Assembly: GCA_964016885.1 (NCBI GenBank)
Contig: OZ024745.1
Span: forward strand, 95,542,001-95,606,000
DNA length: 64,000 bases
Direction of reading: 5' to 3'
From: Eledone cirrhosa
Taxonomy: Eukaryota
Under the pieces are notes generated by a model that saw nothing but the letters and a program-made list of their open reading frames with translations, made no database searches and was not told the origin of the DNA. Shown here piece by piece: positions 18,211 to 48,965 of the stretch (its first letter is position 1; every line of letters starts with the position of its first letter). Position numbers and translations under genes: made by a program.

Positions 18211-18266
18211 ACTGCCTGATGAGGTCATAGCCATTCAATGGCTATCATCGAAATATATATAGCAGT
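18211..18266 (+). ncRNA. Type I minimal hammerhead ribozyme motif (Penelope pLTR type)
   Basis: ACUGC-CUGAUGA-stem II (auagccau/auggcuau)-GAAA-palindromic AUAUAUAU-A-GCAGU, followed immediately by AATAAA. Core intact. Confidence 0.75.
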
Positions 18267-18421
18267 AAATAAAGGATTATGAGTTTATGCAATTGACTTA
18301 TGTTTTCGTCACTATATATATATATATATATATATATATATATATATATATATATATAAATATATATATATATATTAGGTATATCCCTAATTCACTACAT
18401 GCTTTTGGTCATATTTTTGTT

Positions 18422-18638
18422 TAACCCTTTAGTATTTAAACTGGCCATATCTGGCCAGAATTCTCTTACCTCTTTCTCTTCAAACCGGCTGTAACCTGCC
18501 GCTCATACTGATGTAAAGGTGTTTCTCAAAATGAATAACATCAAAATCTCATAGATTCGATATCATGTGAGATAATTATGCGAGACAAAGCCTTTACCAT
18601 GAAAATACAATAACGTAATGTAAATGCTAAAGGGTTAA
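18422..18638 (+). mobile_element. piggyBac-like MITE (family 1)
   Basis: Same TIRs, TTAA and body. Confidence 0.85.
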
Positions 18639-18836
18639 GGTGTTTTTCAGATTTTTATTATTTTCAAATTTTTATCCATTTCAGACTTATTGTTTTCTAT
18701 GTTTTAATGATATTTTTTCTTACTGTCTATCTTTACAGGTTTCAATTTTAATCATCATTACACTTTTCTTCAATAAATTGATAAAATGTAACTCCCTTAT
18801 ATATGTGTTTTTGATATAGATGAAGTTATGTTGATT

Positions 18837-19060
18837 TTAACCCTTTAGCATTTAAACCAGCTGTATCTGGCCAGAATTCTCTCACCTCTTTCTGTTCAAA
18901 CCAGCCATAACTGGCTGCTGATATTGACGTTAAGGTATTGTTCTCAAAATAAATAAAATCTTGTCTTGTAGATTCGATATTATGTGAGATAATTACATAA
19001 GATAATTTACCACAAAAATACAATAGTATATATAGAGTAATGTAAATGCTAAAGGGTTAA
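18837..19060 (+). mobile_element. piggyBac-like MITE (family 1)
   Basis: TTAA|CCCTTTAGCATTTA ... TAAATGCTAAAGGG|TTAA: terminal inverted repeats with a TTAA target; ~215 bp and non-coding. Confidence 0.85.
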
Positions 19061-19924
19061 GGAAGTAGGTGGCCAATTAGGCTACCACACAGAGTGACCA
19101 AAGCTCATGTTATGGCACAAAGTCCATGTATGTTACATGTTCAAATCCTACTGAAGTTGAGATTACCCTCTATTTCACCATAATCAATGAAATAAGTACC
19201 AGTAATACAATGGATTCTATTCAAGTAGTTTTATTTTTTCTCCACAAGAATTGGCCTTGAGCATTGTTAAAAGTAATCAATAGTGTATTAATTTAGAAAC
19301 CTATATAAAAGGACAAGATCTGTTAATACCAATACATGTATTCAACTATTGTCTTCCATACAATTACCAGATTGTCAACATTATTTCATTTTTGATAAAA
19401 TCATCTTGACTTGCAGGATTATGCAGTTCATACAGGAAAGTAGATTGAAAATATTTTAAGCTGGAATCATTCCCTTGTGCTAACAATACAATAATGGAGA
19501 AGAGAAAGGGGTGGAGCACAAAGTCAGAGCATTAATAGAGGTGCATATAAAGGATATTAAAAATAAACATAAGGATAAAAATGTGTAAAAGTGCAAATAA
19601 ATATTCTTTACTTTATATTAAATGCTAGAATAAACTACAAGTTATTGTTATTTTTTAAAACCTTATGTTGTTTTTATCTGTTTTTATTTAAGTTTTAATC
19701 AATATCTCTCATTGTATCCATGTTAATTGTATTTGTAAAGATATGGAAATATGGAGAAGAATAAACCAATGAAATTGCAGTGCAAGTAAAAACATAAATG
19801 ACTGAGAGAACCATTGACTGGTCCATTGTACTGCTTTAGAATGAAACCAGTGAGGTTATTGTTCAAGAATCCATGTGATAAAAAAATAATAATCAAGTCA
19901 AAGATATGTATCTAATAATATAGT

Positions 19925-44984: not shown

Positions 44985-45310
44985 GCATCATCATCATCAC
45001 CACCATCCTCATCATCATCATTATTTAACAACCATTTTTTCCACGCAAGCATGGGTTAGGCAAGTTATCCCATTTGAAAGAAGTCAGGTCAGGTGACCAT
45101 GTCTTGCTCATACAGAACTGTTTCTGGCTTGGTTTCTATGGCTGGATACCCTTCCTAATGCCAACCACATATACAATGTGGAATAGATGCTGTGTATTGT
45201 GGCACTAAAATGTGCCACAGTGTGCACTGGGTGCGTTTTTTCATGTCACCTACACATACACTTTACAATGTAATCTAGGCACTTTTTGTCAAGCACCAAA
45301 ATGACCACAA
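44985..45310 (-). mobile_element. RTE family B 3'-UTR fragment
   Basis: (cat)n, ccacgcaagcatgggtt, ggctggatacccttcctaatgcc and repeat units. Confidence 0.72.
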
Positions 45311-47172
45311 TATATCTCATTCGATGTTCTAACAATTCTGATAAGTGACCAGCCAGAACTGATACTTTATTGTCTATGGAAAAAAATGGAAATAGATAAA
45401 TTCAAATAAAAACATATCTATTTTAAACTCTATGTTTTTAACATTCAGATTGCTAGCTATGAGAAAATCTATATCTTTGAATTATTATTTCCAAAAGCTC
45501 TCAAAGATGTATGAACATGCATCGTAAGCAACATAAGCACCTCTATATATAGACTTGGCAAACAGCCTTAAGTTAAAGGAAGGAAAGTGTGAGATTAATC
45601 CCTTAATCATACTTGCGTGTGTGTGTGTATTTGTGCAGACACAAATATGCATACAGATAAATATGCATAGGCACATATATTTAGAAAAAGTAAGAAAAAG
45701 TGAAGTAGTGCTAAAGTACTCAGAAAAGCAAAATAAGAAGCTGTTAAGATTTCCATTACTAGAAGTGCAGGTGGTTAAGCCACATGTTATGAATGGTGAA
45801 GAACTCGTTTAAACAGAAGACATTAATGATAAAAACAAAATAGACATGGTTGTATACAGGTTATAATGTTTATGTACAGTTAAAACACACTTCATGGTGG
45901 CAAACTGATGAGTTAGTGTCATTTGTAGCCTTTTGTGAAAGGTGCAGGGATCAGTATTAGAACATGTACACCATAAGGTGTTTGGGGGAGTAAAGAGATT
46001 AATTTATATATAAATATTGTTTTACTTTGGGAGGGTCATGCTGGTTATCGAACCAACCAACCAACTTTAAACTTAAAATAAATTGAAGTGAAAACCAACA
46101 GGTGTGTGTGTGTGTTTTTATTGGCAGCATGACCCTCCCAAAGTATAACAATACCTGTTTCAACACACGTTTTCAGATAAGAAATCTTGGAAACAAATTC
46201 AAAAACAACTTATATATAAACTTTTACACACAGATGCATATGCACAAGCATAGAGGTTTATTAATTCTTTAGTAACCAACCTGGCCAAAGCTGGCTCTTG
46301 TTCAATGAAATAAAACCACCCATTTTAAAGGATTCCAATTTAAATTAAAATCTTCCAGCATAATTTTATATAAGAACCTTACATCAACTTACTATTTTAG
46401 TTATGAAATAATTAATAATTTTTGTAAATCCCTCAAATTCTTTATTAATTAATTAAAATAGAGTGTATTTCGTTAGAAATACAGTCATAAAAGTGTTAAT
46501 AGATATACATTTTTTAAAATCTATAAATTTAAGGTACTGGAATATTTATCACCTGGCAATATGTTTAAGGTTGGAGTTCAATCCTAGGACATGTCTTTTA
46601 ATCCCACTATATCATGTCTCTTTCCTGGTCATCGAAACATTGTTATGGAAATTTGATAGATGGAAACTGTGTAGATATATATCTGATGTGTGTGTGTGTG
46701 TGTGTGTTATATAAGCATATAATTGGATTTACTAATTATAATGTAACTAAAATTGCATTTGCTTTTAAATTAATTTTGCTTCCTATGCTTTGTTTTGCTA
46801 AATATAAGTATTATTATGCCTTAATAATATTGATCTGAAATTTTGGTTTTTAGCACATATTGCTCATTGAGTTTTTTATGGAATAATCAGATCGATATGA
46901 ATTATTTTGATATAGATTTTATATATATATATATATATATATATGTGAAGTTCCTTTATGCTTACGGCAGGATTTGTATTCCTGAAGATATGTAGACCAA
47001 TATATATATATATAAATAAGGATGTGGTAGTTTGCTTGAAGCATTGTGTTAGAGTATAAAATAGTATATTTGAAGGCTATGACGGTGCCAAATAGGCAGT
47101 AGATTTTGGTATAAATTGAAGGCAACAAAGATATTGGTATGTCTTCTGTTATTTTATTTCCCTGTCCTAATA

Positions 47173-47357
47173 TTGTTTTCTACTTTTGGCACAAGGCCAG
47201 CAATTACCCAGTACATTACTGGTACTTTATTTTATCGACCCCGTAAGGTTGAAAGGCAAAGTTAACCTCGGTGGGATTTGAACTCAGATCGTAAAGGGAC
47301 ATAACTACGCTGGAAAACATGTCTGACCATCTACCAATACTGCCAATTCACTGCCCC
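47173..47357 (-). mobile_element. SINE family A with TSD
   Basis: Flanked by ttccctgtcctaatattg at 47158-47175 and 47358-47375. Confidence 0.88.
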
Positions 47358-48430
47358 TTCCCTGTCCTAATATTGGCTCAGAGTTTGTGCTTTCAATATA
47401 TATATGTTTATATATGTGTATAGATATATCTGTATGTGTGTGTATGTATATATATATCTGTCCAACCCAAGCAAGCACAGAATAGCTGATGTAGAAGTAC
47501 AAATCAACAAGTTATAATTCACTTCATTTATTCACAACGGTTATGAATAAACGAAGTGAATTTAAACATGTTGACTTGTACTTCATGTTTATAAATATAC
47601 TCCAGAGTAAACAAACCCACTTGTGTACTTTATCAAGTGCTGTATCCTGTATACTGAAATATCAGTGCTCTAATTGATATATATATATATACAGTTCCCG
47701 TATGAGCAAGACAACCCGTCTAACCATGCCAGTGTGGAAGAACGGATGTAAAACGGTGATGATGATGATAATATATATATATATATTTAGTATCTAGACA
47801 TGTAAACATGCCAGAAAATATAAATCTTCTAGTAAATTGAAAAAGAATTATAAACTCTTAATCAATTTTCAGACCTAATTTGGCTCTTAGCAGATGTGTA
47901 TATCATCCAAACAACCACAAGAATACGTGTATCTGATGGTCATATATACGCATTTGCTCTTCATATTATTCTGAAAAGGACACATTAATTTGCATATAAA
48001 GGGTGGATTATGTTATAGTGCCAAAATGAAATGCCAAAATAAAAGTTGTTAGTGTTATGAAAAGCATCTAGTTATAGAAATCTTGCCAAAAATAGAACAT
48101 ACGAAAAAAATGTGGTTCTCTAGCATATTAAGTCTTAGACCATCTCAAACTGCCTCCCAATGCCAACATTATGGAATATGGACATAAAATGGCGCTGCTG
48201 TTGGTATATATATATATATGAGGGATTTAGCATCCCAAAGGCTGAGCTCCTGCCATTTCAACAGCTAGATCCGGATTGAACTGTTGACACAGCAGGAGCT
48301 CAGCTGTTGGGGTTCCAAATCCTTCATATTACCCACTCTACTAACCCAAGTATCGAGTATTCTGGTGAGTAATGGTCTAACAAGATTTTACTGCATCCAT
48401 TCTGATTTATATATATATATATATATATAT

Positions 48431-48828
48431 ATACAAAGTGTTAAAACGATCAAGTTTTAATTTAGAACATGTATTTGCTGACAATTGTTTTTCCAGAGGG
48501 AGGTCTGGGATCATCAGAGCATATGGAATGTCAAAACATGTGACTAAAATCCTAGTCATTCAGAACATTTAGGGTGCATAATTGTTGTTAGTTTCATAGA
48601 CATCATGTGGAGAGTCAGGAGTTAAAAAGATGTTATGCTTGAGAGGATACGATTACAGGCAGCACTGGTTGAAAGTGTAAGAGGTATAAGCAAAAAATCA
48701 TGTACCCTAAATGTTCTGAATGACTAGGAATTTAGTCACATGTTTTGACATTCCTTATGCTCTGGAAGAAACAATTGTCAGCAAATAAATGTTCTAAACT
48801 AAAACTTGATCGTTTTAACACTTTGTAT
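48431..48828. repeat. Long inverted repeat (~140-150-bp arms)
   Basis: 48431-48585 pairs with 48692-48828. Confidence 0.9.
48476..48521 (-). ncRNA. Hammerhead motif with a GAAA>AAAA core change
   Basis: UGCU-CUGAUGA-ucccaga/ucugga-AAAA-CAAUUGUC-AGCA. The sister arm (48758-48789) retains GAAACAATTGTCAGCAAATAAA. Confidence 0.6.
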
Positions 48829-48965
48829 CTCAGTTCTGTAAAACACTTGAAAATTTGCATTGAGCCTTTTGTCGTACTGGTAACCGGCTAATACTTAGTA
48901 CTACCCTTCATATTTATAATTGTATTAAAGATATATAAATATAAATATTCTTATAACTATATATG

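Follow-up and report, generated by a model that had tools for sequence, protein, structure and literature searches.

The window, a stretch of 64,000 nucleotides from Eledone cirrhosa (G000:C5:95542001-95606000, in a 3.0-Gb animal genome), was analysed for hammerhead ribozyme motifs that an earlier reading of the same DNA, here called the original prediction, had placed at 18.2, 29.2, 33.4 and 48.5 kb. The four sites are interpreted as truncated, mostly inverted copies of four unrelated repeat families, F1 to F4 in that order, whose hammerheads are predicted to self-cleave. F1 and F4 are read as pseudo-long terminal repeat (pLTR) ends of Penelope-like elements (PLEs), and F3, less surely F2, as likely non-coding, retrozyme-like passengers. 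A probability of about 85% is assigned to this reading.

Hammerhead motifs in the window and their families

The core CTGATGA was located at 18216(+), 29238(+), 33371(+), 33518(-) and 48517(-). Taken alone, the heptamer was not in excess over shuffled sequence, with 18 occurrences compared with 11.6 ± 3.6 and equally high values in 6 of 100 shuffles. A descriptor of the full motif (stem I, CUGANGA, stem II, GAAA, stem III, UH, stem I) gave two matches, at 18216(+) and 33518(-), and two or more matches were reached in none of 60 shuffles; a second descriptor matched once in total over 100 shuffles. The complete motif had been claimed for all four loci. Cores were indeed present at each, but the intact motif was confined to 18211-18266(+) and 33485-33524(-). 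Since the full motif is incomplete at 29.2 and 48.5 kb owing to core lesions, the claim is borne out at family level but only partly by the window copies; the full hammerhead belongs to the families, as copies outside the window show.

The surroundings of the motifs were largely as had been described. Long inverted repeats enclosed three of the loci (29167-29298, 33273-33653 and 48431-48828), and AATAAA was found at two, at 18268-18273 after the 18.2 kb motif and at 48784-48789 after the right arm at 48.8 kb. All four loci adjoined (TA)n, the nearest tract of at least (TA)5 lying 97, 67, 121 and 78 nt away, respectively; only 12.5% of the window lies within 150 nt of such a tract.

Four unrelated multicopy families were recovered, each with a type I hammerhead, in keeping with the idea of several distinct families. 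Exact matches in the genome numbered 3,461 for F1, 9,069 for F2, 295 for F3 and 464 for F4, with 0 for reversed controls; each value comes from one 20-35-mer, counts arms, was obtained with a pattern length that differs between families and is a lower bound. A search for multicopy families that keep the core had been put forward as a check. At family level F1, F2 and F3 have the complete core (C3-U4-G5-A6-N7-G8-A9, G12-A13-A14-A15.1, U16.1-H17), F4 has it with U4C, and the window copies at 29.2 and 48.5 kb fall short of it. The palindromic stem III of minimal, dimer-type hammerheads was present in F1, F3 and F4 but not in F2, which has a conventional 4-bp stem III.

Some 15-20 further hammerhead types were recognised by eye among descriptor matches in 413 loci (1.23 Mb) that had been fetched on account of F1-F4, and a shuffle of the same 1.23 Mb gave one descriptor match. 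As hammerheads are common genome-wide, four families within 64 kb looks unremarkable. One unrelated type with a GUU site gave five descriptor matches (L364 625-696, L187 and L261), and a different, neighbouring element in L364 matched Rfam HH9 at 35 bits, under the gathering score. Numerous Rfam microRNA matches were set aside as microsatellite or palindrome artefacts, every one being under the gathering score.

The Penelope-like families at 18.2 and 48.5 kb

The F1 copy occupies 18146..18312 on the + strand and is read as the 5'-truncated 3' end (pLTR) of a Hydra-type PLE. It is tail-less and runs into the (TA)n tract 18313..18375, its likely target, at its 3' end. These last 167 bp of the element were 97% identical to the 3' end of a pLTR-open reading frame (ORF)-pLTR copy, L238, and the best-hit F1 loci were 98-100% alike in 30/30 cases. 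The intact type I hammerhead at 18211..18266 (+), a descriptor match, comprises a 5-bp stem I, CUGAUGA, a long stem II (G10.1-C11.1), GAAA, an 8-nt palindromic stem III and an AUA site, with the cut predicted between 18261 and 18262. Stem I, core and stem III were all intact in 17 of 30 pattern-sampled copies, and in a sister family stem II was altered on both sides and position 7 was altered while the core was kept. The 5' end was at -118, next to a TA microhomology, in 11 of the 30, and the window copy shares this start.

Long F1 copies exceeded 4 kb. In L238, an upstream pLTR with a ribozyme at 4203 is followed by an ORF with reverse transcriptase (RT) and GIY-YIG pieces, a 3' untranslated region (UTR) of ~1.3 kb, a second ribozyme at 8351 and then (TA)n, giving a ribozyme-to-ribozyme spacing of 4,148 bp.

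The same pLTR-ORF-pLTR layout was found for F4 in L107 and L110, and in L110 the F4 tail continues directly into the beginning of the ORF. In the window, the F4 antisense arm (48431..48694, -) abuts (TA)n at 48408-48433 with its tail-less end and was 92% identical to the long copies L107 and L079; its hammerhead at 48476-48521 (-) is missing G12. The sense arm (48693..48964, +) carries AATAAA and a tail, with the 5' core and stem II deleted, so that one arm is tailed and the other tail-less. U4C was present in 23 of the 24 readable copies of the pattern set and in 15/22 of the best-hit set. With U4C as the family core, the CTGATGA of the window copy is probably a CpG-decay revertant. U4C is a natural hammerhead variant with lowered activity (PMC3088659).

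The original prediction had proposed a test of linkage to Penelope RT and GIY-YIG ORFs, and this link was found for F1 and F4 in longer copies elsewhere in the genome. Broken ORF pieces, RT first and GIY-YIG at the C-terminal end, were identified in L238, L236, L235, L107 and L110. The further PLE traits of a partial tandem pLTR with hammerhead, 5'-truncated inverted copies and a tail on one end were borne out by L238 and L110 and, with one tailed and one tail-less arm, by the F4 copy of the window. The motifs RWR, DKT, YRDD, CxCx5C, CxxC and CxH occur in this order in both ORFs, the F1 and F4 pieces of which were 34-39% identical; homologues of the F1 piece gave RVT_1 plus a weak GIY-YIG. The Hydra clade is described by an RWK-type motif, DKT, a CxCx5C linker, CxxC and CxH surrounding the catalytic residues E and N, and (TA)n insertion (PMC8557442). 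This set was found in F1 and F4, with RWR replacing RWK. The families had been described as non-coding, which does not apply to F1 and F4, the 3'UTR/pLTR ends of elements with RT and GIY-YIG, but does to F3 and probably F2.

Two other endonuclease pieces were noted. L112 (G000:C2:87598500-87606000) contains a GIY-YIG piece (Pfam E 5e-8) near hammerheads of its own, and L114 an additional PLE endonuclease piece of CxCx5C type.

Fold-back copies and tandem units at 29.2 and 33.4 kb

The F2 copy is a fold-back palindrome at 29167..29298, with its centre, 29232/29233, on the 5' margin of stem I. The left arm is antisense and tail-less, with a mutated core. The right arm carries a damaged hammerhead at 29233..29282 (+), in which U16.1 is changed to C at 29275, and a tail at 29299..29352 (+), present on this arm only and followed by (CA)n(TA)n. 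Stem III of the window copy is a full 4 bp with an 8-nt loop. In the family hammerhead, stem I is bulged, stem II has 3 bp and stem III 4 bp, with U10.1.U11.1 and a GUA site. Across F2 and its sister families the stems were 94.9% paired, with a compensatory change in stem I, compared with 32-47% in slid controls; the covariation score was reached by 1 of 500 shuffles. As the comparison consisted of 12 hand-picked rows, and related rows can beat shuffles in the absence of structure, this is taken as support and not as proof.

Most sampled F2 copies shared the same centre region, many copies were not inverted, and 34 of 38 F2 palindromes had a tail on exactly one arm. Long copies revealed two CCAAT boxes and a TATA box upstream of the ribozyme in 28/30 (the query itself contained these motifs). 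The TATA-to-core spacing was 35-37 nt in 21/21 sequences of F2 and sisters with diverged spacers, where 28-42 was permitted. When the starts of 51 pattern-sampled arms were mapped, 15 lay at -45/-46 from the cut, which is 30-31 nt past the T of the TATA box (-76), and 32 lay between -33 and -52; 15 were shorter and four longer, one of the latter being a misaligned fold-back and two looking like one duplicated locus. Folded-back arms made up 32 of the 51, and non-folded copies started at the same point too. Genome-wide, a 20-mer at the TATA box had 577 matches compared with 9,069 at the 3' end. The starts 30-31 nt past a conserved TATA box point to the 5' end of the RNA itself as the likely stop, and an RNA start is judged the somewhat better bet for the fixed point of F2.

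A less probable alternative, though the strongest of those considered, is that local sequence or structure sets this point, either by snap-back of the cDNA at a short self-complementary stretch immediately 5' of the core or by its trimming to the base of stem I. The point does fall on the 5' boundary of stem I, long copies have a short hairpin at this place, stem I itself appears lengthened to 14 bp in L203, and the F1 ends cluster at a TA microhomology rather than 30 nt past a TATA box. Yet the shared start of non-folded copies argues against this alternative, as does the retention of the TATA sequence and its spacing in sister families despite diverged spacers. Copy L345 starts at the same point though one whole unit longer, and in none of F1, F3 and F4 do the ends gather at the stem I edge.

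The two arms of F2 palindromes were compared in 63 cases, a few of which were counted twice or came from sister families. Mismatches between arms at two subfamily sites occurred in 11/58 and 4/59, compared with fractions of 0.52 and 0.38 expected if the arms were independent. Subfamily letters are for the most part common to both arms, as are private changes in some cases, which favours a single cDNA folding back; an origin from two templates as the rule is contradicted by this agreement.

In L345 the tail, a microsatellite and the upstream part are joined into a 420-bp unit. No ORF was seen upstream in promoter-bearing copies (30 scanned for ORFs, 60 mapped). F2 is probably a non-coding 420-bp retrozyme-like unit and a passenger of PLEs, with less assurance than F3. 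A GIY-YIG ORF ~830 nt from an F2 copy (L098/L112) was considered as its parent and rejected, as that ORF has hammerheads of its own and a microsatellite lies between. In Logan contigs from runs X1, X4 and X5, a large depth step and loose ends were observed at the F2 fold-back point, with no such step on F3. X1 and X4 belong to one study, possibly the assembly's own sample, and sister families inflate the F2 step, so it was not counted as independent support.

F3 forms a four-segment inversion complex at 33101..33994, consisting of antisense 33101-33293, sense 33273-33452, antisense 33451-33783, (TA)n and sense 33806-33994. The sense copy of its hammerhead (33365..33407, +) has a single stem II mismatch. 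The copy that passed the descriptor (33485..33524, -) has a GUU site, a 6-nt palindromic stem III, a 6-bp stem I extended by a second helix and an unpaired C10.1.A11.1 at the base of stem II; an allied subfamily has U.U plus GUA. The unit is 427 bp long and non-coding, contains an internal microsatellite and is arranged head to tail in L034 and L053. Six same-strand pairs 420-438 bp apart occurred among the 100 matches listed, and five further pairs were inverted. A tandem, non-coding unit of a few hundred base pairs with one type I hammerhead per unit is the organisation expected of a retrozyme, and F3 is likely a retrozyme-like passenger of PLEs. Three of 96 arms (L156, L163 and L335) started within 1 nt of the predicted cut, where ~0.7 would be expected if starts were uniform, a weak hint of cleavage in vivo; the 5'-end pattern is blind to ends further 3'. 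An apparent group of starts at -43 to -51 (5/50 arms, one a deletion) was absent from 46 additional arms and was dropped.

Upstream of the F3 ribozyme, an octamer motif and a TATA-like word were present (window 33320-33327; L034 1510-1600). These may belong to a promoter of small nuclear RNA type, like that of newt satellite 2.

Another fold-back family, the fifth, is represented by a decayed copy at 48216-48329, with a tail to about 48380. This family was frequent next to (TA)n in the fetched loci, where 33 distinct arms were counted, and resembles F2 in its fixed centre and in having the tail on one side. In two long copies, L246 and L282, a TATA-like word precedes the fold-back point by 25-30 nt. 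A GAAAC...GUC segment is present, but CUGANGA was not found adjoining it, and the GAAA may be a hairpin loop. A further inverted repeat of 330 bp at 41418-41744, 94.5% complementary and free of a hammerhead core, has a related piece in L091/L092.

Proposed insertion route, known systems and other repeats of the window

PLE insertions had been expected to be partly inverted, and inverted, truncated copies were indeed observed at three of the loci. The following route is proposed. A PLE protein would nick AT-rich microsatellite DNA, as the accounts in PMC11167929 and PMC8557442 suggest, and reverse transcription would begin at either of two internal sites downstream of the ribozyme, leaving a tail-less or a tailed end. 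The template would be RNA with an uncut ribozyme. The cDNA would halt early, and its 3' end would often fold back and prime a second arm, so that sense and antisense ribozymes come to lie head to head. For F2 the halt would be the 5' end of the RNA, and its palindromes would represent the initial 65-150 nt of the transcript in full. F2 and F3 presumably borrow PLE proteins. A likely role of the ribozyme in the source elements is to trim tandem transcripts or make them circular, acting as dimers through the palindromic stem III in F1, F3 and F4 and as a monomer in F2. The fold-back copies in the window are likely dead ends, since a transcript would pair arm with arm.

A more specific proposal, put forward tentatively and at somewhat less than even odds, is that F2 and its sisters consist of ribozyme units under TATA/CCAAT control and that what they most often leave in the genome is a full cDNA of nothing but the capped RNA 5' end, RT starting behind the uncut first ribozyme, running off the start and snapping back. 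If so, thousands of ribozyme palindromes would form a built-in map of start sites, with the cut ~45 nt from the cap. The hammerhead would then be a switch that removes the cap and destroys the short-circuit template, which would answer what PLE hammerheads do.

Several observations weigh against the reading given at the outset. A scan with Rfam hammerhead models, suggested as a check, returned no match to the window at E ≤ 5, and the models also missed F1-F4 in six fetched loci. Although the hammerhead fold of F1 was within 1.1 kcal/mol of the energy minimum, those of F2, F3 and F4 lay 3.8, 7.0 and 2.7 kcal/mol above it, so that dimers or protein help would be required, or activity would be low. 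All three also deviate from the consensus, F2 by U10.1.U11.1, F3 by C10.1.A11.1 and the GUU site, and F4 by U4C. Pfam gave weak or no matches for the broken F1 and F4 ORF pieces, and the apparent placement of both families in the Hydra clade follows motifs and not a tree; its general, not strict, trait of a length <3 kb does not apply to F1. Neither F2 nor F3 could be linked to a mobilising partner. The 420-bp join of F2 was seen in 1 of 60 long copies, L345 only, and the arms of a few F2 palindromes (L121, L139 and L132) differ at the two diagnostic sites, so some may have arisen from two templates. A start 30 nt past a TATA box was considered for all four families and abandoned on its failure in F1 (0/30 copies) and in F3, the 5' ends of which are spread across the unit. 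The F4 5' ends formed a loose group, with 8/30 at -116 to -142; F4 extensions halted in an indel-rich stretch near -230 to -253, and such values are not 5' ends.

It is possible, if unlikely, that the hammerheads are relics, the masters of F2-F4 being already inactive and having spread because they no longer cut. The U4C of F4 would fit this, as would the C.A mismatch and GUU site of F3 where its allied subfamily keeps U.U and GUA, and cleavage is dispensable for insertion in vitro (PMC11167929). On the other hand, U4C and U10.1.U11.1 are known natural variants (PMC3088659; PMC7229834), GUU recurs here in an unrelated family, and the F3 arms at the predicted cut argue weakly for activity. More doubtful still is the view that F2, perhaps together with F3, represents the 3' end of autonomous PLEs, shortened at an internal microsatellite. 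F1 copies are also broken at internal microsatellites, and long F2 copies end at (TG)n near -312 to -325, which only L345 passes; however, promoter-bearing F2 copies showed no upstream ORF, and F3 closes on itself after 427 bp at several loci.

Fold-back DNA transposons or miniature inverted-repeat transposable elements (MITEs) with an incidental hammerhead likeness are very improbable, because F2, although often a near-perfect 130-bp palindrome among TA repeats, has unequal outer ends rather than matching terminal inverted repeats, usually with a tail on a single arm, its centres vary, many copies are not inverted and its stems covary, while F1 and F4 are tied to RT ORFs, which already contradicts a MITE origin for both. 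Least probable of all are hairpins retained by the host as regulatory elements in a neuronal-gene intron, given that no host-gene domain was found in 171 window ORFs, that the window copies show ordinary decay and that the local density of hammerheads looks ordinary beside the other types in the fetched loci.

Those 171 ORFs were chosen from two sets, 254 ORFs with a length of 55 aa or more and 111 GC-richer ORFs 45-64 aa long, with obvious repeats excluded. Domains found by Pfam in the 94 of at least 64 aa were all of retroelement type, and the 77 shorter ones gave nothing. The neuronal-gene intron of the original prediction is unsupported, no host exon having been found, and a host gene cannot be named. 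The reported absence of a PLE RT or GIY-YIG ORF from the window agrees with the Pfam results for the 94 and 77 ORFs and with BLAST using long F1 and F4 copies.

Much of what surrounds the preferred reading of PLE ends and passengers is already published, including PLE hammerheads, opposite-strand pairs, one-sided tails and (TA)n targeting, also for an octopus Hydra family. Inversions, one-sided tails and (TA)n targets are described in PLEs (PMC8557442), as are opposite-strand hammerhead pairs 100-700 bp apart that derive from truncated PLEs (PMC4209133). Hammerheads with a palindromic stem III cut as dimers (PMC4209133; PMC6765202), and animal retrozymes are proposed PLE derivatives (PMC7229834; bioRxiv 10.64898/2026.07.22.740005). 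The role of hammerheads in PLEs is described as still open (PMC8557442; PMC11167929). A fixed, TATA-linked fold-back point was not found in the literature searched, which mostly excluded subscription papers and whose supplements may bear on the point. A 2026 repeat annotation of Octopus vulgaris lists Penelope-like families, its main text being free of the word 'ribozyme' (PMC13282606).

F1 and F4 resemble the endonuclease-bearing (EN+) C-terminal PLEs of the Hydra clade in RW(K/R), DKT, CxCx5C, CxxC and CxH, in RT followed by GIY-YIG, and in a canonical hammerhead close to the 3' end; also shared are pLTRs, inversions, tails on one side only and (TA)n as the target (PMC8557442). They differ from the description there in that the F1 unit is about 4.15 kb compared with <3 kb, the pLTRs are clear and the 3'UTRs measure ~1.3 kb, the F4 tail has a length of about 135 nt compared with 30-40 bp, and the F4 core has U4C. 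Hydra-1_Obim of Octopus bimaculoides has a hammerhead and a (TA)n preference (PMC8557442); compared by eye, its hammerhead differs from those of F1 and F4, which are other families.

Published PLE hammerheads (PMC4209133) are likewise of type I with a short palindromic, dimer-type stem III, mostly in single copies from truncated PLEs. Unlike them, as far as that account goes, F2 has a full 4-bp stem III and a TATA-defined fold-back point, and F3 has C10.1.A11.1 with GUU. Animal retrozymes of non-LTR type are similar in that their tandem units are non-coding and AT-rich and contain a single type I hammerhead (PMC7229834; bioRxiv 10.64898/2026.07.22.740005), and the U.U at the base of F2 stem II matches axolotl HHR_Amex2 (PMC7229834). 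The F2 and F3 units of 420-427 bp are slightly longer than the 170-400 nt reported for animal retrozymes. In contrast to these, most of their copies are partial monomers or 1.6-mers, dispersed and with inversions of PLE type.

For the Poseidon element PAc of Anolis, a PLE protein nicks AT-rich DNA, two internal RNA start sites define the optional tail and uncut RNA is used (PMC11167929). The optional tail, AT-rich targets, uncut RNA as main template and a protein-assisted hammerhead are shared with the route proposed here; PAc belongs to a different clade, and the account given in that source leaves aside cDNA ends and the origin of inversions. The promoter of Drosophila virilis Penelope is also within the pLTR and drives the downstream unit (PMC2377424), but it is described as internal and TATA-less, whereas F2 has an upstream CCAAT-CCAAT-TATA arrangement that is lost in short copies.

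Families with a ribozyme in both coding and non-coding elements are abundant in this genome, and natural core variants are available at family level (U4C; C.A with GUU; U.U). Together with the sharp genomic footprint of cDNA ends in F2, these make tests of cleavage, start site and template choice easy to design, and the thousands of short perfect hairpins could supply double-stranded RNA wherever transcribed.

The window copies look like ordinary retroelement debris, in a stretch of seemingly octopus-like repeats where microsatellites, SINE-like repeats and broken RT ORFs are all dense. Broken ORF pieces like those of a long terminal repeat retrotransposon (DUF7041, RT, RNase H and integrase) were located at 58392-62461 (-), and LINE-type RT ORF fragments at 7821-9497 (+), 49329-50166 (-) and 42545-43979 (-); the intervals 8649-9450 and 49331-50134 are mutually inverted copies. 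A 126-aa ORF at 15774-16151 (+) gave no Pfam match and presumably resembles a zinc-finger fragment of a hAT transposase. SINE-like units of 191 and 48 bp are tandemly arrayed at 13338-14101, 31890-32402 and 3443-3540, and tRNA-like heads, under the Rfam gathering score, were detected at 38210, 48974, 57456 and 63833.

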